Shown in pieces: positions 1-29,434 of a stretch of 38,678 bases of DNA (position 1 is the stretch's first letter; every line of letters begins with the position of its first letter). The position numbers and the translations under genes are program-made. Under the pieces are notes generated by a model. It worked only from the letters and a program-made list of their open reading frames with translations. It did not search any database and was not told the DNA's origin. The DNA is from Candidatus Wolframiiraptor gerlachensis (lineage in GTDB: Archaea; Thermoproteota; Nitrososphaeria_A; Caldarchaeales; Wolframiiraptoraceae), in the NCBI GenBank assembly GCA_021323375.2, contig JAJPCT020000006.1:1-38678 (forward strand), read 5' to 3'.

Positions 1-2
1 AA

Positions 3-104
3 ATCCTGATAAAAATTAGGGGTAGGGCTACAGAGAAAGATGTTGTATACCTAATATTCACTTTTCAAGCAATAATAGGCTTATTAGGATTATGGGTTTT
101 GTGA
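3..104 (+). CDS. 3' end of a membrane protein gene, possibly MraY/AglH-like glycosyltransferase family 4 (partial)
   Basis: Not in ORF track. Frame reads ILIKIRGRATEKDVVYLIFTFQAIIGLLGLWVL-TGA(102-104); the TE-x-x-VV plus terminal hydrophobic helix resembles AglH/MraY C-termini. Only 33 codons visible. Confidence 0.35.
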   Translation: MLIKIRGRATEKDVVYLIFTFQAIIGLLGLWVL

Positions 105-250
105 GAAAAAACTTATTTTTTAACAAATCCACTATAGTCGATCCTCGGCAGGTTAAAAAAGTTACGATTCTTTAAAAATTAAGAATCTTAAAATTTTAAT
201 ATTCTTAAGACCCTCATAATAGCGAGAAAATGAGGCGCGGAAACTCCCCC

Positions 251-258
251 TTAAAGCC
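251..258 (+). promoter_or_regulatory. TATA-like TTAAAGCC promoter motif
   Basis: 30 nt upstream of ATG 281; same motif at 1891(+), 1870(-), 4981(-), each 30-32 nt before an ATG. Confidence 0.6.
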
Positions 259-280
259 AGCCTATGAGAATGCCACGGTG

Positions 281-583
281 ATGGAAGCTGAGAGGCTTGT
301 CGAGATAAAGGCCAAGGTTCCAGAGAGGGTCGCGAAGTTCATAGGCTATGCCTCTAGGCGGCTCCACATCCCAGAAGAGGAACTGTATGCGAGGCTTATC
401 GGGGACGCCTTAAGCGCTTTGGAGAGTTACATGAGCCATCCTGAGGGCTGGACTCGCTTTGTTGGCCTGAGCCTTGAGCCGGTCTTGTGTTATGCTCTCG
501 CGAGCCTAGCCGAGTCGTTTGTGGGAAGCTATAGTAGCCAAAACTTCAGACGCATGCTAGAGGCAGAGGAAGTGGATGCCTAA
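281..583 (+). CDS. Small putative DNA-binding protein (RHH-like N-terminus)
   Basis: LVEIKAKVPERVAKFIGYASRRLHIPEEELYARLIGDAL has a strand-helix-helix pattern. Start moved from 230 to 281 by promoter spacing. Confidence 0.5.
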   Translation: MEAERLVEIKAKVPERVAKFIGYASRRLHIPEEELYARLIGDALSALESYMSHPEGWTRFVGLSLEPVLCYALASLAESFVGSYSSQNFRRMLEAEEVDA

Positions 584-701
584 CGTATGCGCTTCTTCCC
601 TCCTCCCTTTTTTTCTGCATACCTAAGAAGGTGATGATGCACACATGGCTGCCGGAGGCCCGCATACGCTAGCCTCAGAGGCTGGGGATGGGATTGCATA
701 T

Positions 702-1031
702 ATGCATAAGCGGAGGAGCTTCACATGCAGGTATTGTGGAGAGAGCTTTGGTAGCATGGCCAGCCTCGCGGCGCATATCTCCTGGCGCCACAGCCAGAAG
801 CGCCAGAAAAGCCGTGAAGAGCGGATCATAGAGCTGTTGGAGGAGCTTTTGGCAGAGGTCAAGGCTCTCAGGCAGGATCTCAAAAGCCTGAAGCTTGTCG
901 AGTATACGAGGAGGACCGAGGAAAAAGTCAGGGAGATCAGGCAAGAGAGGCCTCCTGATAAAAAGCTCCCAAGCTTTCTTATAGGCAATCCATGGCTTGA
1001 CATCTTATCAAGGAGGGCTGAATCAGACTAG
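702..1031 (+). CDS. C2H2 zinc-finger protein with coiled coil
   Basis: FTCRYCGESFGSMASLAAHISWRH is a C2H2 motif, followed by a heptad-rich helix. ORF track start 645; 702 preferred. Confidence 0.75.
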   Translation: MHKRRSFTCRYCGESFGSMASLAAHISWRHSQKRQKSREERIIELLEELLAEVKALRQDLKSLKLVEYTRRTEEKVREIRQERPPDKKLPSFLIGNPWLDILSRRAESD

Positions 1032-1044
1032 ATAATGAACAAGT

Positions 1045-1241
1045 AGGCGCCTCGATGAACAAAGATGTTCATCCGTTAGCGTCCGCGGACGCTAACGATT
1101 TAAAAAGGAAAGGTATTTTCGCCTTCTCTCCCTAGTTCTAATTCCTCTTTTAATGTGGTTGAAGAGCAATTCAACCGCATCCTTAAATATCTTGGAGATA
1201 TTTACCGGCAAATACCTCGCCCATCAGATATATATCTGGTG
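1045..1241. repeat. Cluster of six inverted repeats/palindromes
   Basis: AGGCGCCT 1045-1052; GATGAACA-AAGA-TGTTCATC 1054-1073; perfect 24-bp palindrome CGTTAGCGTCCGCGGACGCTAACG 1074-1097; stems at 1153-1180, 1184-1204, 1222-1241. Confidence 0.85.
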
Positions 1242-1269
1242 TATGTAGCTAAAGGGAGGGGCGCTCTTT

Positions 1270-1653
1270 CTATATAGTTTGGAGCTTCTCGGTCTTCCGC
1301 CACGTGAGGTTTTCTGTTAGCGGCAGCATGCAGGCCGGACACCCGGGGTATCGTATTTCTAGGCCGAGTTTGGGGACCGGCAGGTGGATGTTGAGGATCT
1401 CGGTCCTAAACCTGTTTCCTTGGAATCTGTAGCCGCAGTGTGGGCAGACTTCAGGCTCGAGTATCAGATCCCCTTTCCCTCTTTTCTCGGCCTGCTCCCC
1501 CTCTATGATAACCCCCCCCTTTTTCTCATTAAGCTCCTTCTCAGCCAGCTCTCTCAGGAGCCTGTTGAAACTCCTCGCGCCCCTCCGGTCTCTAAGCTCT
1601 CTTAGGAGGTCATAGGTCTCGGGCGAGACCCTAATCGTGACCACCATCCCCAT
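1270..1653 (-). CDS. RHH/VapB-like DNA-binding domain fused to a Zn ribbon
   Basis: VVTIRVSPETYDLLRELRDRRGARSFNRLLRELAE (RHH pattern) plus CPHC...CPAC. Confidence 0.7.
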   Translation of the reverse strand: MGMVVTIRVSPETYDLLRELRDRRGARSFNRLLRELAEKELNEKKGGVIIEGEQAEKRGKGDLILEPEVCPHCGYRFQGNRFRTEILNIHLPVPKLGLEIRYPGCPACMLPLTENLTWRKTEKLQTI

Positions 1654-1840
1654 TCACCTCTAATCTCACCTGACCATACTCGGCCTCAATCACCTTCGGG
1701 GCCGGGATTATCTCGACCCCGTTTTCAGGCCTCTCCCCTAGGAGCCTGAGGATGGCTTCTGAGAAGTCGTCTAGGCTGTTCCTATCCATCCACGCGCAGA
1801 GCTTGATCAAGGCCTTCTCAGAGATCCGGATAAGCGGCAT
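1631..1840 (-). CDS. Small RHH-like protein
   Basis: MPLIRISEKALIKL...DDFSEAILRLL; overlaps the next gene; TTAAAGCC 30 nt upstream. Confidence 0.6.
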   Translation of the reverse strand: MPLIRISEKALIKLCAWMDRNSLDDFSEAILRLLGERPENGVEIIPAPKVIEAEYGQVRLEVNGDGGHD

Positions 1841-1848
1841 CGTTAGAA

Positions 1849-1898
1849 ATGCATACGTGCTTGGCTTTAAGATGCATGCGTGTATCCCCTTTAAAGCC
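1849..1898. promoter_or_regulatory. Divergent promoters with an operator-like direct repeat
   Basis: TTAAAGCC at 1863-1870(-) and 1891-1898(+); ATGCATACGTG (1849-1859) and ATGCATGCGTG (1872-1882) flank the minus-strand TATA. Confidence 0.6.
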
Positions 1899-1922
1899 TA
1901 GCTCTCCAAGGTTATTTTACTG

Positions 1923-2120
1923 ATGCTGGTGAGGGTTCTCGCGAGAATCCCAGAGGCTTTTAGGGGCCAGAATGTGACGCGCGCTAAGCTCGCCTTCTGG
2001 GATTCAAGCATCTCCGCCTTCGCGCGATCCATTAAGCATCTTGATGGCGAGGAGGTTGAGCTGGAGTTCGAGATATCGGATATGAAGATTGAGCTCGCTC
2101 ACTGTTGGGATGAGGTCTGA
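1923..2120 (+). CDS. Hypothetical protein
   Basis: 65-aa ORF with TTAAAGCC 32 nt upstream. Confidence 0.5.
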   Translation: MLVRVLARIPEAFRGQNVTRAKLAFWDSSISAFARSIKHLDGEEVELEFEISDMKIELAHCWDEV

Positions 2121-2211
2121 CATCTTTCTCGCTGTTGATGAGAAGGGGGAGGGTTATGCGATCAGGAAATGGATGGCGGCAACCCCGATAAAAGCGGAGA
2201 CGCTCAGGTGA
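2110..2211 (+). CDS. Possible 33-aa protein
   Basis: MRSDIFLAVDEKGEGYAIRKWMAATPIKAETLR; overlaps the previous stop; its TGA lies in box C of the sRNA. Confidence 0.3.
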   Translation: MRSDIFLAVDEKGEGYAIRKWMAATPIKAETLR

Positions 2212-2264
2212 TGAGCCTTCGCCTTGCTGAGCCTGAGGGCTATGATGAGCCTCCTTCTAGCTGA
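2208..2264 (+). ncRNA. Box C/D sRNA (double guide)
   Basis: C GTGATGA 2208-2214; guide GCCTTCGCCTTG; D' CTGA 2227-2230; GCC-TGAG-GGC hairpin; C' ATGATGA 2242-2248; guide GCCTCCTTCTAG; D CTGA 2261-2264. Both guides are 12 nt. Confidence 0.7.
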
Positions 2265-3508
2265 TCTAGCTCCTCCTCAAGCTTTCTGATATGCCTCTTC
2301 ATCACCAGGTAGGTTATTAGGGCGAAGATTAAGGCCGTGGCCGCCATTATCCACGTCCACATCTTGAACCAATTAGCATTACGCTGATACATCGCGAGGT
2401 AGTCGAGGCATACGCTATAATTCGCGTTCAAGCTATTATATTCATTGACCAGTCTCCTTATCGTTTGGTTGCATTTCTCGCCCAGCTCCAAGCCCAGAGA
2501 CACGCAATAGGACAAGTTCGCCCTCAGCATCTCATTCTCCTCTTGGAGGCGGCTTATGATTATGTCCGCTGTCTGGAGCTGGCCCCATAGGTCCGCGGCC
2601 TGCTCCTCTAGGGCCGCGCTCATGACCCGGAGATCCTCGTTCTCCTGCCTGAGCCTCCGGTTCTCGTCATTAAGGTATGTGATGACATCGCTCGCATTTC
2701 TTAGATGATCCCAGAGCTTATCCATTTCAGCCTCGACCGACTTGACCCGATGTCGAAGCTCCTCATTCTCCCTCCTGAGCTGCCGTAGCTCGGCATCATA
2801 TGGAATGACCATCTTATATTCTAGGCCATCGGGTAGGGCTATTATCTCGAAGACCTCGCGGAAACTGTGGTTAAAGAATATCTCATGGATGGCGTAGAGG
2901 TCGAGGGTCGATGGATACGTTTTCTCGTTCTCCGCGGCGCCGCGCATAAGCTCAAACTTCCCATCGCCAGTGCGATCTTGGAATGCGTGTCCAAGGCCTA
3001 ATGCATGTCCAAGCTCGTGGAAGATCACTCCCCAAACCCACTCCGCTGATCCCCTATCGAATAGATTGCAGGCCACGTAGATTTGGGACTGGTAGGGGGT
3101 CCAAGCGCCCGTGAAGTTCGTATATGCTATGACCCCTTCCTGCCTGATGACCCTGAAAGTTATATCGGCCTCGCTATGATCGGAGACGTTTACAAACCAT
3201 ATTTCTAGGAGCCTGTGGAATTCCGGATGCTCATCGACAAACCGGAAGACCACTTTGCGGAACGACCTTAAAACATCGTAGAACATTGATGCAAACTCCT
3301 TTTGATATTGGCAGGTGAACTCTTCTCCATGATCCGCGTCTAGGGCGGTTGGATAAACATAGACCTTCAAGGGGAGTGCATTTGACGGCGGGGGAGTGAT
3401 ATATATTCGTGGTGATGTCGCGGAGGCGTGGACATAGCTAAAACTAGAAAAGAGCGCTAAAGCTAGCATTAACGTCAGAGTGAGAAGCTTTGAAACCGCG
3501 CTGCTCAA
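2240..3508 (-). CDS. Membrane-anchored matrixin-like (metzincin) metalloprotease with coiled-coil stalk
   Basis: Signal peptide; HELGHALGLGH zinc motif; probable Met-turn (ELMRG); long coiled coil; C-terminal TM. Confidence 0.8.
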   Translation of the reverse strand: MSSAVSKLLTLTLMLALALFSSFSYVHASATSPRIYITPPPSNALPLKVYVYPTALDADHGEEFTCQYQKEFASMFYDVLRSFRKVVFRFVDEHPEFHRLLEIWFVNVSDHSEADITFRVIRQEGVIAYTNFTGAWTPYQSQIYVACNLFDRGSAEWVWGVIFHELGHALGLGHAFQDRTGDGKFELMRGAAENEKTYPSTLDLYAIHEIFFNHSFREVFEIIALPDGLEYKMVIPYDAELRQLRRENEELRHRVKSVEAEMDKLWDHLRNASDVITYLNDENRRLRQENEDLRVMSAALEEQAADLWGQLQTADIIISRLQEENEMLRANLSYCVSLGLELGEKCNQTIRRLVNEYNSLNANYSVCLDYLAMYQRNANWFKMWTWIMAATALIFALITYLVMKRHIRKLEEELDQLEGGSS

Positions 3509-4950
3509 GGTCGTTCACCGGCTATGAAGACGAACTGGCTATATGGATAGTATATGATTACTGGTGACATCAGGAGGTATCGTCCTGCATAATAGCCTCC
3601 CCCATAGCCTCCTCCGCCTCCTCCACCATATTTTTCGACATACTTTGTTACCGTCACAGTTCTAGTGACGGTCGTCACAACAGGATAAGGCTCAGGAACC
3701 TTGACTGTCTCTTTTATGGTCGTCTTGACTGTCGTGGTCGTTACCTCCCATCTGGTTTCGACCTTTGTTAGGGTTTGGGTTTTGTATCTCGTGGTTGTCT
3801 GGGTTATTGTCTGGGTTGTCGGCTGGGTTACGATGGACGTGACGGTCTGGGTTTTGGTGTAGGTTGTCCCGGGCTCCGTGACCGCGTATGTGGTGGTGTA
3901 GGTTATGGTTTGGCCGGGCAGGATTATCAGCTCCGTCTCCGTGACCTTGGTGGTGTATGGGACGGTCACCGTGATCGTCCTTGTCTCCACGACCGGCGTC
4001 ATGCCCTCCATGCCGGACTCAGATGCCACCATGACCTCTGCTAGCGGCGCCACCGTGACATCTTTCTCGACTATCATCTCGAAGTCGCCGGTCTCCTTGA
4101 ACTCGAAGCTGAAGCAGCCGAGCTTTGCGTCCTTAAGCTCCCTTACCACGGGCTCCTCGTCCCCCTCGAACTTGACCACGCCTTGGTAGTCGGCGTAGAA
4201 GCATATCTCCCGCTCCTTTGTCTTCGGAGGCTCATTCGGGATCTGTAATCCCCCAGTGGGCCTCTCTCCGGCGAGGATCTTCCTCGCAAGTTCTTTCTCC
4301 CCGAGGGCCATTAAGTGGAAGACCTTCCCGGGGACTGACAGCTTCTCGAACTCCATCTTCTCCGGCGGGACGCCTTTCCCGGCCCTCTCAAGGGCCTTCT
4401 CGTGGATCACCTCGCCGTCAACGCTCACCTTGACCTTCACGTTGAAGCTGTATTCCTCCGGGATGCCTTGGTATGTCTTGACCCTGAGGATCGGCCTTAC
4501 CCATACTTCTCCCTCGAGGCCCCTCTGATGGTCGTAGAGCTTGAGGGCCCTGTAGTCCCCGAGCTTGGGCTTCACGTAGATGCCGGACATACCTATGAAG
4601 CCGGCCTGAACCCCCGAGAACTTCTGCGTGAAGATGAATGATTCGCCGCTCGTGGAGGTGTAGCCGATCTCGGCCTCGAGTCCGACCGATTCAACCTCAC
4701 CGGAGAGGGCCTTGCCGAGGTTGCTGAAGGCCTTGACTACTGGTGCTAGGGGACCCCAGTCCCTCTCGATCACCAGCTCCTCGGCGGGCTTGATGCCCGG
4801 GACGCTTATCCGCGGCTGCGGCCTCGTCACCGTTATGATCGGCTGGATGGCCATGGTCAGCCCGATCATCAATAGCAGGATTATGCCTAGCGCGAGGATG
4901 AGCCTGTGGCCCTCACGCCGCCTAACCCCGTAACCAGCCTTTCCCTTCAT
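3505..4950 (-). CDS. Membrane/surface protein with Thr-rich stalk
   Basis: N-terminal TM, beta-rich domain, long Thr/Val-rich tract, Gly/Tyr tail. Start 4950 by promoter spacing (track 4965). 4-nt overlap with the protease gene. Confidence 0.7.
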   Translation of the reverse strand: MKGKAGYGVRRREGHRLILALGIILLLMIGLTMAIQPIITVTRPQPRISVPGIKPAEELVIERDWGPLAPVVKAFSNLGKALSGEVESVGLEAEIGYTSTSGESFIFTQKFSGVQAGFIGMSGIYVKPKLGDYRALKLYDHQRGLEGEVWVRPILRVKTYQGIPEEYSFNVKVKVSVDGEVIHEKALERAGKGVPPEKMEFEKLSVPGKVFHLMALGEKELARKILAGERPTGGLQIPNEPPKTKEREICFYADYQGVVKFEGDEEPVVRELKDAKLGCFSFEFKETGDFEMIVEKDVTVAPLAEVMVASESGMEGMTPVVETRTITVTVPYTTKVTETELIILPGQTITYTTTYAVTEPGTTYTKTQTVTSIVTQPTTQTITQTTTRYKTQTLTKVETRWEVTTTTVKTTIKETVKVPEPYPVVTTVTRTVTVTKYVEKYGGGGGGGYGGGYYAGRYLLMSPVIIYYPYSQFVFIAGERP

Positions 4951-5180
4951 CAATAAACACGGCATAGCTACTTGGCTTTAAAACCGATTCTCTTCGCCAC
5001 GATCGCGGATGCCTCACTCCTCGTAATGTTGTTGTCGGCTATTTGCATGAAAAATAAACTTTGGCAAAAATGAAGATCTATAACGCAATGGACTTCTAGC
5101 CAGTTTCTTCCCCCCTACTCCTCGGCGCATGTTTCCCTCAATTCATCAATTCCACGCGTGTCCTTTTTTTATCTCTACAT

Positions 5181-6362
5181 CTACCAGGGCTTCTCCAAGG
5201 ATAGTATTGTGATGTAGGCGAAGTGTCCTGTCCCTCCAACATTATGTACTAGGGCTTGGCCATGTTTTATTGTTGCTTGCCTTCCTCGGTCTACTTCTTG
5301 TCGAAGCTGCTTAACGGCCTCATAGATCATTGCTAGGCCTGAGGCGGCTATTGGGTGTCCCTTTGCCTTAAGCCCTCCATCGGTGTTGACTGGGATTAGG
5401 CCTCCTATGTATGTCTGCTCCTCCCTCGCGAGCAGGTATCCCTCTCCCCTTTTAGCGAACCCGAGATCCTCGTAGGCGATTATCTCCGCTATCGTGAAGC
5501 AGTCGTGGATGAGGGCGAGGTCGAGGGACTTCACGGGATCCTCTATCCCGGCCTTCCTGTATGCCTGCTTAGCCGCTTCAACCACGCTCTCTATCGAGAG
5601 GAGGTCTCTTCTCATTGTGAGGTTTGCCGGCGCTGTCGCTATCCCCTGAGACTTCACCCAGACTGGCGTATCCGTGAGCCTTGAGGCGATCTTCTCCGAT
5701 GCCACGATGGCCGCGGCGGCGCCATCCGTTATTGGCGAGCAGTCATAGAGCTTGAGAGGCCAGGCCACATACCTAGAATTTAGGACATCCTCGATTGTTA
5801 TCCTCTTCTGGAATTGAGCCTTCGGGTTCATCGAGCCATAATAATGGTTCTTAACCGCGATCTTCGCGAGATCCTCCTCGGTCGCGCCATACTCATCCAT
5901 GTAGGCCCTGGCGAAGAGGGCATAGTATGCGGGGAATGTAAGACCGAGCGTCTCGAATTCCCAGAAGAAGTTTCCTCCCCTGCCAAGGAGCTCTACTATG
6001 GCGGGTGTTGATGCCAGCTCATTCATCCTCTCAGCCCCAACCGCGAGGGCTATATCCGCGTAGCCGGATTCAACGGCCATGCAGGCTGCTGCGAGCGCTG
6101 CGCTCCCGGATGCACAGGCCGCCTCAACCCTCATCCCTCCCCTTGGATTAAGCCCAGCATACTCGCATACTATCGGGAGTGGGAAGAACTCGCCGCTCCA
6201 CCCGCCGACGTTGCCGAAGGCGATGAATCCTATATCCTCTCTGGATACGCCAGCATCTCTCAAAGCCTCATCAACGGCCTTGAAGGCCAGCTCTGGGAGC
6301 TGGTGCTCCAGATCCCTCCCAAACCGCGTCATCCCAACGCCTATTATCGCGACGACCATCAA
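5181..6362 (-). CDS. Thiolase-family protein (archaeal SCP-x type acetyl-CoA acetyltransferase)
   Basis: VEAACASGS, HDCF, GGLKAKGHP, HNVGG motifs. Confidence 0.9.
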   Translation of the reverse strand: MMVVAIIGVGMTRFGRDLEHQLPELAFKAVDEALRDAGVSREDIGFIAFGNVGGWSGEFFPLPIVCEYAGLNPRGGMRVEAACASGSAALAAACMAVESGYADIALAVGAERMNELASTPAIVELLGRGGNFFWEFETLGLTFPAYYALFARAYMDEYGATEEDLAKIAVKNHYYGSMNPKAQFQKRITIEDVLNSRYVAWPLKLYDCSPITDGAAAAIVASEKIASRLTDTPVWVKSQGIATAPANLTMRRDLLSIESVVEAAKQAYRKAGIEDPVKSLDLALIHDCFTIAEIIAYEDLGFAKRGEGYLLAREEQTYIGGLIPVNTDGGLKAKGHPIAASGLAMIYEAVKQLRQEVDRGRQATIKHGQALVHNVGGTGHFAYITILSLEKPW

Positions 6363-29315: not shown

Positions 29316-29434
29316 GCGGGGGTAGCCAAGCCTGGACAAAGGCGCCGGGCTTAAGACCTGATGAAAGCTGGTCAGATTACTGGTTGGAGACCCGGTCCCG
29401 TAGGGGTTCGCGGGTTCGAATCCCGCCCCCCGCA
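29316..29434 (+). tRNA. tRNA-Leu(UAA) with a 34-nt intron at 37/38 (29356-29389)
   Basis: GCGGGGG/CCCCCGC acceptor stem; anticodon TAA 29352-29354; long variable arm; GGTTCGAATCC; TTAAAATA at 29283-29290. Confidence 0.9.

Follow-up and report, generated by a model that had tools for sequence, protein, structure and literature searches.

A box C/D guide RNA gene resides at positions 2208 to 2264 on the forward strand of the window, by which we mean the entire 38,678-nt stretch of DNA that was analyzed. As judged from its sequence, this locus is confirmed as a genuine archaeal guide RNA gene that belongs to a known RNA class and has an ordinary build. The perfect C, D′, C′, and D boxes and the two 12-nt guides that a preliminary description had recognized here are borne out. 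They follow one another in the order C–D′–C′–D with exactly canonical spacing and guide lengths of 12 and 12 nt. The small RNA (sRNA) and its immediate neighbors, with the boxes read from the sequence, are as follows.

1890–1895, forward strand: TTTAAA, a TATA-box-like hexamer and candidate promoter, ~30 nt before the ATG at 1923
1923–2120, forward strand: 65-aa ORF with its 3′ end overlapping the beginning of the 33-aa ORF; probably the leading gene of the sRNA-carrying transcript
2110–2211, forward strand: 33-aa ORF ending in box C, its protein conserved in metagenome variant L048
2206–2267, forward strand: probable mature sRNA, predicted to be ~62 nt
2208–2214, forward strand: box C, GTGATGA, which fits RUGAUGA
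2215–2226, forward strand: D′ guide, GCCTTCGCCTTG, 12 nt, inside 2212–2239, the sole stretch that is non-coding on both strands
2227–2230, forward strand: box D′, CTGA, perfect
2231–2241, forward strand: D′–C′ spacer, GCCTGAGGGCT, 11 nt, with a possible 3-bp GCC/GGC hairpin
2242–2248, forward strand: box C′, ATGATGA, perfect
2249–2260, forward strand: D guide, GCCTCCTTCTAG, 12 nt, antisense to codons of the convergent 422-aa ORF
2261–2264, forward strand: box D, CTGA
2240–3508, reverse strand: 422-aa protein, the last 25 nt of its ORF overlapping the sRNA
3505–4965, reverse strand: 486-aa protein of unknown family, sharing an operon with the 422-aa ORF and located upstream of it

The guide RNA gene and its immediate neighbors

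The four-box pattern with 12-nt guides occurs once in the window and in none of 100 dinucleotide-preserving shuffles. A slightly looser version of this pattern yields six matches across the 1,277,965-base genome, and a relaxed C/D scan returns 21 genome matches versus none in a block-shuffled genome. Several C/D families of Rfam match exactly the sRNA interval, all with scores below their gathering thresholds (snoPyro_CD, 25.5 versus 45 bits; sR42, 25.2 versus 38 bits; sR5, 22.4 versus 40 bits). Because these models represent individual Pyrococcus-type families with differing guides, a sub-threshold score is no argument against membership in the class. The thermodynamic fold of the sRNA is not distinctive relative to shuffles (z −0.78), and a strong fold is not expected for C/D sRNAs. 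The view that these are merely chance box-like motifs with no RNA gene behind them could draw on the Rfam scores and on this unexceptional minimum-free-energy fold, but its probability is negligible in light of the empty shuffle controls, our estimate of ~2e-4 occurrences expected per genome, the canonical spacing and box order, and the retention of the motif in all variants.

An earlier remark that the two guides resemble each other also holds, as they are identical at eight of 12 positions; the two halves of the sRNA are identical at 19 of 27. The mature RNA may be closed by a possible 3-bp terminal stem formed by A2206–U2267, G2207–C2266, and G2208·U2265. Chromosomal sRNAs of the same genome (on two other contigs, C18:124463-124511 and C25:66134-66188) have the same boxes and 12-nt guides. 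The D′–C′ spacers of sRNAs in this genome are 4–12 nt long, with lengths of 10–11 nt in two of the five other perfect-box sRNAs.

Box C was said to contain the stop of an upstream mini-ORF, and indeed the TGA at 2209–2211 ends the 33-aa ORF. This ORF differs from its counterpart in L048 at 11 of 102 nt, with just three amino-acid changes, which indicates that it is truly coding and under purifying selection. By the archaeal rule for promoter position relative to the ATG, the TTTAAA hexamer is a candidate promoter for a leaderless transcript that would carry the 65-aa ORF, the 33-aa ORF, and the sRNA. Since its last stop codon lies within box C, such a transcript would continue directly into the sRNA. 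The sequence has no TATA-like box suitably spaced to give the sRNA a separate promoter. A scan of the window for sigma-70 promoters and intrinsic terminators gave no match either; models of these elements are not applicable to archaea.

The antisense overlap that had been described on the opposite strand is present as well, with positions 2240–2264 facing the last seven codons (QLEGGSS) and the stop of the convergent 422-aa ORF. The protein encoded by this ORF has a hydrophobic signal-like segment at its N terminus and a membrane helix at its C terminus, together with a coiled coil and the zinc-protease-like motif HELGHALGLGH. Its initial label as a protease is not retained here, having as its basis just this motif and sub-threshold matches. 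The adjacent 486-aa protein combines an N-terminal membrane helix with a Thr-rich region and a Gly-rich tail. The overlapped tail of the 422-aa protein is not conserved, as a 40%-identical homolog aligns just to residue 414 of 422. Most simply, the antisense overlap is the result of tight gene packing. Neither this overlap nor the stop codon within box C is special, because both are common published layouts among the Pyrobaculum sRNAs described in PMC6009581 and PMC3388794.

The integrated element and its variants

The sRNA is probably cargo of a tyrosine-integrase element that resides at the 3′ end of a PEPCK-like gene in this hot-spring archaeon. The element is split between the start of the window (contig C6) and another contig of the same genome, C7, and has the following parts and boundaries.

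1–5073, no strand assigned: right-hand part of the element, which continues on C7 (C7:32303-36342), the middle being unassembled
5074–5095, forward strand: 22-bp direct repeat, attR; the other copy is attL at C7:32281-32302
5181–6362, reverse strand: thiolase gene, the core chromosomal gene nearest the element
C7:32303-33745, reverse strand: tyrosine integrase, 480 aa, adjoining attL at the far end of the element

The 22-bp repeat has exactly two copies in the genome, one at each junction, and the attL copy constitutes the 3′ end of the PEPCK-like gene. The integrase ORF matches Phage_integrase (E 1.3e-13) and an XerA-like model (E 1.3e-22, below the equivalog cut-off). In sister genomes G005 and G002 (93.5% and 87% nucleotide identity, respectively), the sequence corresponding to window position 5074 is joined directly to that of C7:32305, and the insert is absent. 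The thiolase gene beyond the junction is 96% identical in G005 and 95% identical in G002. It had been asked whether this region might be core chromosome; it is not, since the insert is bounded by the 22-bp repeats and is missing from two sister genomes.

The original term “virus-like island” was therefore half right: the att repeats, integrase, and empty sister sites identify a genuinely inserted mobile element, but no viral hallmark was found. Pfam and NCBIfam searches revealed no capsid, packaging, or other viral hallmark genes among the ORFs of the assembled element parts, and none of seven element proteins has a PHROGs match with a named virion or replication function. The only PHROGs matches are three weak ones (E 0.001–0.007), all to the coiled-coil part of the 422-aa protein. 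IMG/VR yielded no relatives of the two large element proteins (422 and 486 aa), and Pfam found no Nop-domain gene on the assembled element part. The end of C7 and the start of C6 overlap neither each other nor any other contig end. Small contigs C27 and C24 were considered as missing parts of the element and rejected as core DNA. Contig C21 was likewise rejected because it starts in core DNA, and the rest, which is absent from the sisters, is a different variable region.

Whether the sRNA travels with the island was a question posed at the outset, and three metagenome contigs that are close variants of the element do carry it. These contigs account for three of six metagenome pattern matches and have identities of 95%, 90%, and 97%. 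The boxes are thus conserved in homologous loci over the range in which conservation was measured, namely close variants of 90–97% identity. These variants retain every box and guide without change, and a single substitution (A2235G) occurs in the spacer loop; the D′–C′ spacer is the only part of the sRNA that varies among them. In addition, contigs from all four hot-spring runs examined cover the sRNA, and the sole change within it, among the 40 of 110 substitutions listed, is a 1-nt spacer deletion at 2236.

At greater distances, a DNA search of 40 relatives found no homologous sRNA, and an exact-pattern scan of IMG/VR for a homolog gave zero matches. The same type of scan applied to the genome contig collection produced one half-match in a bacterial MAG, which was set aside as chance. 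No C/D sRNA lies near the homologs of the 422-aa protein in genomes G011 and G020 or near the integrase homologs in G068 and G073. A 39-nt match in G014 that resembled a CRISPR spacer was rejected as coiled-coil coding sequence.

Viral contigs were also surveyed for other C/D-like loci. A strict 12/12 pattern has six matches in IMG/VR, four of which are tandem duplications with identical “guides.” One of the remaining loci is within an ORF adjoining a phage-connector-family gene on what is probably a phage contig, and the other is the host flank of an archaeal provirus. A looser pattern returned at least 149 loci and was uninformative, with most representing a 27-nt periodic coding repeat of low-GC contigs. 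One provirus fragment in IMG/VR has an integrase directly beside an ortholog of a chromosomal sRNA of the present genome, which indicates that elements integrate next to sRNA genes and could capture them.

Candidate targets and roles

The perfect 12-nt targets predicted for the two guides in the preliminary description occur nowhere in the genome except at the trivial cis-antisense site. The next-best genome-wide matches have 11 Watson–Crick pairs and one G·U pair and number four per guide, which is near a rough chance estimate of about one per guide with base composition allowed for. A 12-mer present in eight copies, TTAGGAGGAGGC, is a near-match to the D guide and was rejected because the copies lie in unrelated coding contexts. 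Complementarity to mature tRNAs reaches at best 8–9 contiguous pairs, and pre-tRNA-Phe offers one 11-pair run that includes three G·U pairs. With the element's own transcripts, the D′ guide reaches no more than 10 bp and the D guide no more than 9 bp; these matches are to two ORFs on C7 and are at about chance level.

The best candidate for a target in trans, which we propose only tentatively, is a pair of sites in the host 16S rRNA, with the D′ guide directed to G1137 and the D guide to A1144 (numbered according to the genome's own 16S gene). Positions +2 to +11 of the D′ guide pair with 16S nt 1134–1143 through nine Watson–Crick pairs and one G·U pair, which would place the methyl group at G1137. 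Positions +3 to +11 of the D guide pair with nt 1142–1150 through eight Watson–Crick pairs and one G·U pair, with A1144 as the predicted methyl site. The two sites are 7 nt apart in a GCCGCC-GAAA-GGCGG hairpin identified by eye, which we take to be helix 40. The predicted footprints overlap by 2 nt, and the D guide is unpaired at +1 and +2. Hotspots for 16S methylation are helices 3, 18, and 27 (PMC7994747), and the candidate site is outside of these.

Taken singly, the rRNA matches are not significant, because ~45% of shuffled guides match as well. A score of at least 9.5 out of 10 is achieved by 7% of random genomic 10-mers and by 18.5% of D′ guide shuffles. As a positive control, several chromosomal guides of the host have perfect 10-mers in the same rRNAs, whereas the element guides reach just 10 and 9 bp, each with a G·U pair. 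Co-location of both guides within 100 nt is observed for 1.8% of 1500 same-permutation shuffles, 0.4% of 4000 random genomic 12-mer pairs, and two of the 19 C/D candidates of the genome (the element sRNA included), in a test that was devised post hoc, after the hits had been seen. An order-wide pattern search for guides to the same 16S site matched 12 of 76 genomes, including this one, versus four control matches. No box C lies upstream of the non-self matches (11 of the 12 matches inspected). No chromosomal guide for this site was found among the 76 genomes of the order, and the present genome has no other perfect-box guide for this 16S region.

The proposed mechanism would begin with transcription of the small-ORF operon (65-aa and 33-aa ORFs) from the TTTAAA-type promoter near 1890. 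Host L7Ae, Nop5, and fibrillarin would bind the C/D and C′/D′ motifs, and a ~60-nt sRNP would be trimmed out of the mRNA. Genes for all three proteins are present in the host on other contigs (fibrillarin on C18, E 4.6e-95; Nop5 on C23, E 1.3e-71; L7Ae on C13, E 1.7e-30), and this chromosomal Nop5 is the sole Nop gene found. The sRNP would then direct ribose 2′-O-methylation of the target nucleotide that pairs with the guide five positions upstream of box D′ or D. If so, the element might use its own guide to borrow host fibrillarin, methylate 16S G1137 and A1144, and re-tune host ribosomes for its own benefit, a reading we consider somewhat unlikely. It is just as doubtful that these methyl groups would be ones not specified by chromosomal guides of the host or its relatives, which would make the sRNA an archaeal counterpart of v-snoRNA1 of Epstein–Barr virus.

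It is quite unlikely, in our judgment, that the sRNA is instead a cis-antisense regulator, with the mRNA of the convergent operon (486-aa and 422-aa proteins) as the target of either the sRNP or the antisense RNA by itself. In this scenario, 2′-O-methylation directed by the D guide would fall on the central A of the GAA codon that lies five codons ahead of the stop, and the 3′ UTR would be the target of the D′ guide; another version is that the duplex would alter mRNA 3′-end stability. We assign these details the same low probability. The opposite strand at the sRNA locus does hold the only perfect 12/12 complements of both guides genome-wide, but such complementarity is automatic for any overlapping gene pair and is therefore uninformative. 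As described in PMC3388794 and PMC6009581, convergent 3′-antisense C/D sRNAs are frequent and conserved in Pyrobaculum, making up 28 of the top 34 conserved 3′-antisense cases, and mRNA methylation or antisense regulation has been proposed for them. However, the accounts of these sRNAs in the two papers report no demonstrated archaeal case, and 40 of 47 Pyrobaculum guides antisense to gene 3′ ends still have rRNA or tRNA targets (PMC6009581). Furthermore, the 40%-identical homolog in which the QLEGGSS tail is not conserved has no sRNA nearby, as fits an accidental overlap.

Very unlikely, too, is that the sRNA is a functionless passenger or is purely structural, having been captured from an earlier host chromosome or created by half-duplication, with orphan guides. 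At most, and with similarly slim prospects, its protein-bound kink-turns might cap and protect the 3′ end of the small-ORF mRNA. This would agree with the lack of any single significant rRNA or tRNA target and with the situation in Pyrobaculum, in which orphans account for 28% of guides and are a frequent outcome of overlap with coding genes (PMC6009581). The similarity between the guides and between the sRNA halves fits internal duplication, and the provirus integrase beside an sRNA ortholog makes a capture route possible. Yet the four perfect boxes speak against this reading, as do guides that are unchanged in variants whose flanks diverge by 5–10%. The co-located 16S complementarity is unusual in controls. 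A DNA search of 40 relatives found no chromosomal source copy, and 76 genomes of the order yielded no chromosomal guide directed to this 16S site.

Relation to known guide RNAs and significance

The sRNA most readily invites comparison with the convergent 3′-antisense sRNAs of Pyrobaculum, such as PAEsR53 opposite etfA, which are described as having the same dual 12-nt guide architecture (Bernick et al. 2012, PMC3388794). Here, as in 23 Pyrobaculum cases, the upstream gene ends with a stop codon contained in box C (Lui et al. 2018, PMC6009581). Other features shared with the sRNAs described in these reports are a D guide over the 3′ end of a convergent gene, the lack of an own promoter, and a weak or absent rRNA match. 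In contrast, the Pyrobaculum sRNAs are depicted as chromosomal and syntenic across the genus, whereas the present sRNA lies in a strain-specific element and is absent from all 40 relatives searched.

Epstein–Barr virus v-snoRNA1 is likewise a C/D guide carried by a mobile genome that uses host methylation proteins (Hutzinger et al. 2009, PMC2718842), and it methylates host rRNA according to the abstract of a 2026 preprint (10.64898/2026.05.13.724956). That RNA is intron-encoded in a eukaryotic herpesvirus and is experimentally proven, whereas the RNA described here has an archaeal host and is known from sequence. The TIGR-Tas arrays of phages and archaeal viruses, as presented in PMC12045711, also comprise mobile-borne dual-guide RNAs with box C/D-like motifs and belong to the same Nop-domain RNP superfamily. 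Their tandem dual-spacer guide RNAs are bound by Nop-domain proteins (PMC12045711). However, TIGR loci are described as long arrays that lie beside a Tas (Nop-domain) gene and target DNA, whereas the present locus is a single unit with full kink-turn boxes.

The locus had been put forward as a candidate for a new system, but its RNA belongs to a known class, and what is new is the genomic context. In archaea, box C/D guide RNAs are regarded as chromosomal housekeeping genes, and an archaeal C/D sRNA borne by a mobile element appears to be unreported. Full-text literature searches found no report of a C/D sRNA encoded by a virus, plasmid, or integrated element of archaea. Small or non-coding RNAs are not mentioned in the main text of a survey of 68 thaumarchaeal integrated elements (PMC6563490).

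If the guide is active, mobile elements could alter host RNA modification without carrying any enzyme, and strain-level differences in ribosome methylation could be horizontally transferred. The natural sister populations with and without the element constitute a simple test system. Even if the guide is inert, the locus documents a route for guide RNA genes moving between genomes.

A box C/D sRNA gene behind two small ORFs

The stretch at 2208-2264 is a genuine box C/D sRNA gene. It adds a new member to a known class and is carried on an integrated mobile element. The preliminary description had recognized its boxes and guides, and this observation holds: the window has a single match to the four-box pattern with 12-nt guides, which occurs in none of 100 dinucleotide-preserving shuffles. 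With a slightly looser pattern there are six matches in the 1,277,965-base genome. Relaxing the scan to tolerate at most two box mismatches yields 21 matches at 19 genome loci and none in a block-shuffled genome.

Features of the sRNA locus (window coordinates)
1923-2120, + strand: 65-aa ORF, its end overlapped by the 33-aa ORF
2110-2211, + strand: 33-aa ORF, its stop (TGA, 2209-2211) within box C
2208-2264, + strand: box C/D sRNA (GTGATGA, 12-nt guide, CTGA, 11-nt spacer, ATGATGA, 12-nt guide, CTGA)

Rfam C/D families align to exactly 2208-2264, all under their gathering scores (snoPyro_CD, 25.5 bits versus 45; sR42, 25.2 versus 38; sR5, 22.4 versus 40), these models being particular Pyrococcus-type families whose guides differ from those found here. 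The minimum-free-energy fold is unremarkable (z -0.78), as is usual for kink-turn RNAs. By eye, the ends could be closed by three pairs (A2206-U2267, G2207-C2266 and G2208·U2265), and a GCC/GGC hairpin is possible in the D'-C' spacer.

The 33-aa ORF is truly coding. Against L048, a metagenome variant of the element, it has 11 differences in 102 nucleotides yet only three in its 33 residues, and six consecutive differences fall at third codon positions. A TTTAAA hexamer precedes the ATG at 1923 by about 30 nt. By the usual promoter spacing, the sRNA has no A/T-rich box where a promoter of its own would need one; the nearest, ATAAAA at 2188-2193, is only 15-20 nt from box C. Given this upstream hexamer and the absence of a separate box, we infer that the sRNA would be cut from the 3' end of the ORF65-ORF33 transcript. 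ATGCAT palindromes recur at 1841-1922, where a divergent promoter region precedes the small-ORF operon.

The other strand of 2240-2264 encodes the last seven residues (QLEGGSS) and stop of a convergent 422-aa protein with a signal-like N-terminus, a HELGHALGLGH motif, a coiled coil and a C-terminal membrane helix. The earlier designation of this protein as a protease is based on the motif, which is the metzincin consensus, and on sub-threshold matches to metzincin or serralysin families. The tail overlapped by the sRNA is not conserved, because a homologue in genome G011 (40% identical) aligns only to residue 414 of 422. No C/D sRNA was found beside that homologue.

The integrated element

Contig C6, one of 27 in the genome, begins with the window (its first 38.7 kb), and NCBI taxonomy places the genus Wolframiiraptor within Nitrososphaerota. 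The thiolase gene at 5181-6362 is core (protein identity 96% and 95% in sister genomes G005 and G002), and in both sisters the DNA adjoining it runs directly into the equivalent of C7:32305 and downward. C6:1-5073 and C7:32306-36342 have no counterpart at that site in either sister. A 22-bp repeat occurs in exactly two genome copies in direct orientation, C7:32281-32302 (attL) and C6:5074-5095 (attR). The repeat forms the 3' terminus of a 601-aa PEPCK-like gene; the element completes the gene's final Phe codon with its last T and provides a new stop. A 480-aa tyrosine recombinase is encoded immediately within the left junction. A survey describes 14 of 68 thaumarchaeal integrated elements as sitting in protein-coding genes at the 3' end, with short att sites (PMC6563490). 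The element is at least 9.1 kb long with its middle unassembled, and no overlap was found between contig ends that would bridge its C6 and C7 parts. Its other assembled genes encode small ribbon-helix-helix, zinc-finger and unknown proteins.

This region had been called a virus-like island. The empty site in the sisters, the repeats and the integrase show that it is a mobile element, whereas its being a virus is not shown: PHROGs gave nothing informative for the element proteins (only three weak coiled-coil matches), NCBIfam no viral family, and IMG/VR no relatives of the two large proteins (422 and 486 aa).

A motif adjoining GCAT (GAAAAATAAACTT and its complement) is shared, in inverted orientation, by the sequences just inside both element ends (C6:5025-5073 and C7:32306-32350); this motif and the ATGCAT palindromes may be binding sites for a regulator or recombinase. 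Relative to G005 and G002 there is also a second, roughly 2-kb insertion (C7:27430-29409; about 3431-5410 of locus L044), which lies 3 kb from attL and encodes a 289-aa ORF, the same length as a neighboring presenilin-like ORF. Past its first 245 bases, contig C21 (5204 bases) lacks a continuous counterpart in all three sister genomes compared; it is probably a further region that is mobile or specific to the strain.

Persistence and possible capture of the sRNA

An exact-pattern scan of JGI metagenomes yielded six loci, three of which are element variants (95%, 90% and 97% nucleotide identity). Two of these hold the whole sRNA and the third contig ends inside it; the single difference is A2235G in the spacer loop. 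Parts of the window are also present in seven runs from seven studies (six hot-spring metagenomes and one sediment metagenome), and contigs of all four runs examined cover the sRNA. Among 40 listed of 110 substitutions, the sole change within it is a 1-nt deletion at 2236, in the spacer. Thus, whether the RNA travels with the island, a question raised in the preliminary description, can be answered for close variants (90-97% identity), which keep it with boxes and both guides unchanged. Such conservation provides modest evidence, because the variants are close. Searching the DNA of 40 relatives did not turn up the sRNA. It was likewise missing near distant homologues of the 422-aa protein and of the integrase, and exact-pattern scans of a one-genome-per-species collection and of IMG/VR did not detect it.

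In IMG/VR, six loci fit a strict pattern, and none is convincing as a virus-borne sRNA. One of them (L091, last 1620 bases) is a provirus fragment in which a 390-aa tyrosine integrase abuts a C/D sRNA orthologue, 92% identical over 120 nt to a chromosomal sRNA of this genome (C18:124393-124512) downstream of the acetolactate synthase small-subunit gene. No second repeat of this provirus was found in the fragmentary record. Homology between L091 and the host stops at the box D side of the sRNA, so C/D sRNA genes may act as an integration site or lie next to one. Elements therefore do insert directly beside sRNA genes, which points to a way in which such a gene could be captured. Elsewhere in IMG/VR (L096-L175), a 27-nt periodic coding repeat (TGATGA-N11-CTGA-N6) mimics two C/D half-units; common in low-GC and giant-virus contigs, it swamps loose C/D sRNA pattern searches.

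Candidate targets and known guide RNAs

Genes for fibrillarin, Nop5 and L7Ae all reside on other contigs, and no Nop-domain gene was found on the assembled part of the element; the predicted sRNA most likely works through the host methylation machinery. Perfect targets had been proposed earlier, and these perfect complements to the guides occur nowhere but at the cis-antisense site. Several chromosomal guides, which served as a positive control, have perfect 10-mers in the host 16S or 23S rRNA. The 16S (C26:59838-61333) and 23S (C16:19245-23012) genes lie on different contigs, and a second 16S gene, partial and slightly different, ends contig C11 (C11:19792-21097). The 23S gene probably contains introns, because it spans 3768 bases versus a 2987-position model. 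The default tRNA tool overlooked an intron-containing tRNA-Leu(TAA) at window 29316-29434, which Rfam and ARAGORN with intron search both detected.

Under the N+5 rule (PMC6009581), the best match of the D' guide pairs +2 to +11 with 16S 1134-1143 (nine Watson-Crick pairs and one G·U; target G1137), and that of the D guide pairs +3 to +11 with 1142-1150 (eight and one; target A1144), leaving +1 and +2 unpaired. The predicted footprints overlap by 2 nt, and the likeness of the guides (8 of 12 positions) mirrors that of the two adjacent 16S segments. Single matches of such quality are common: about 45% of shuffled guides have one, and a score of at least 9.5 is reached by 7% of random genomic 10-mers. 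Co-location of both guides within 100 nt is much rarer (1.8% of 1500 shuffles permuting both guides identically, 0.4% of 4000 random genomic 12-mer pairs, and 2 of the 19 C/D candidates in the genome, the element sRNA included), in a test devised post hoc after the hits were seen. Targets within 100 nt are typical for dual guides of real rRNA sRNAs (PMC6009581). G1137 and A1144 are testable, if unproven, candidate targets. The predicted site falls outside helices 3, 18 and 27, the published 16S hotspots (PMC7994747).

The anatomy of the sRNA is ordinary, because its three notable features are described as common in Pyrobaculum. Two papers report an upstream stop codon within box C in 23 cases and 28% of guides as orphans (PMC6009581), and, among the top 34 conserved antisense cases, 28 with convergent 3'-antisense overlap (PMC3388794). 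The earlier reading as a new system finds only partial support: a guide RNA on an integrated element stands, but the RNA class is known and its layout familiar. What is unusual is the carrier. A full-text literature search found no archaeal C/D sRNA on a virus, plasmid or element; "virus" and "viral" are absent from the text of the Pyrobaculum sRNA survey (PMC6009581), as are "sRNA" and "non-coding" from that of the thaumarchaeal element survey (PMC6563490). TIGR-Tas arrays of viruses are related guide systems, but their architecture and partner protein are not those of this sRNA. The closest precedent is Epstein-Barr virus v-snoRNA1, which methylates host rRNA according to the abstract of a 2026 preprint (10.64898/2026.05.13.724956). 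Because no other perfect-box guide for the predicted 16S region was found within the genome, nor any guide for it in 76 genomes of the order, the 16S modification would be element-specific if the guides act there.
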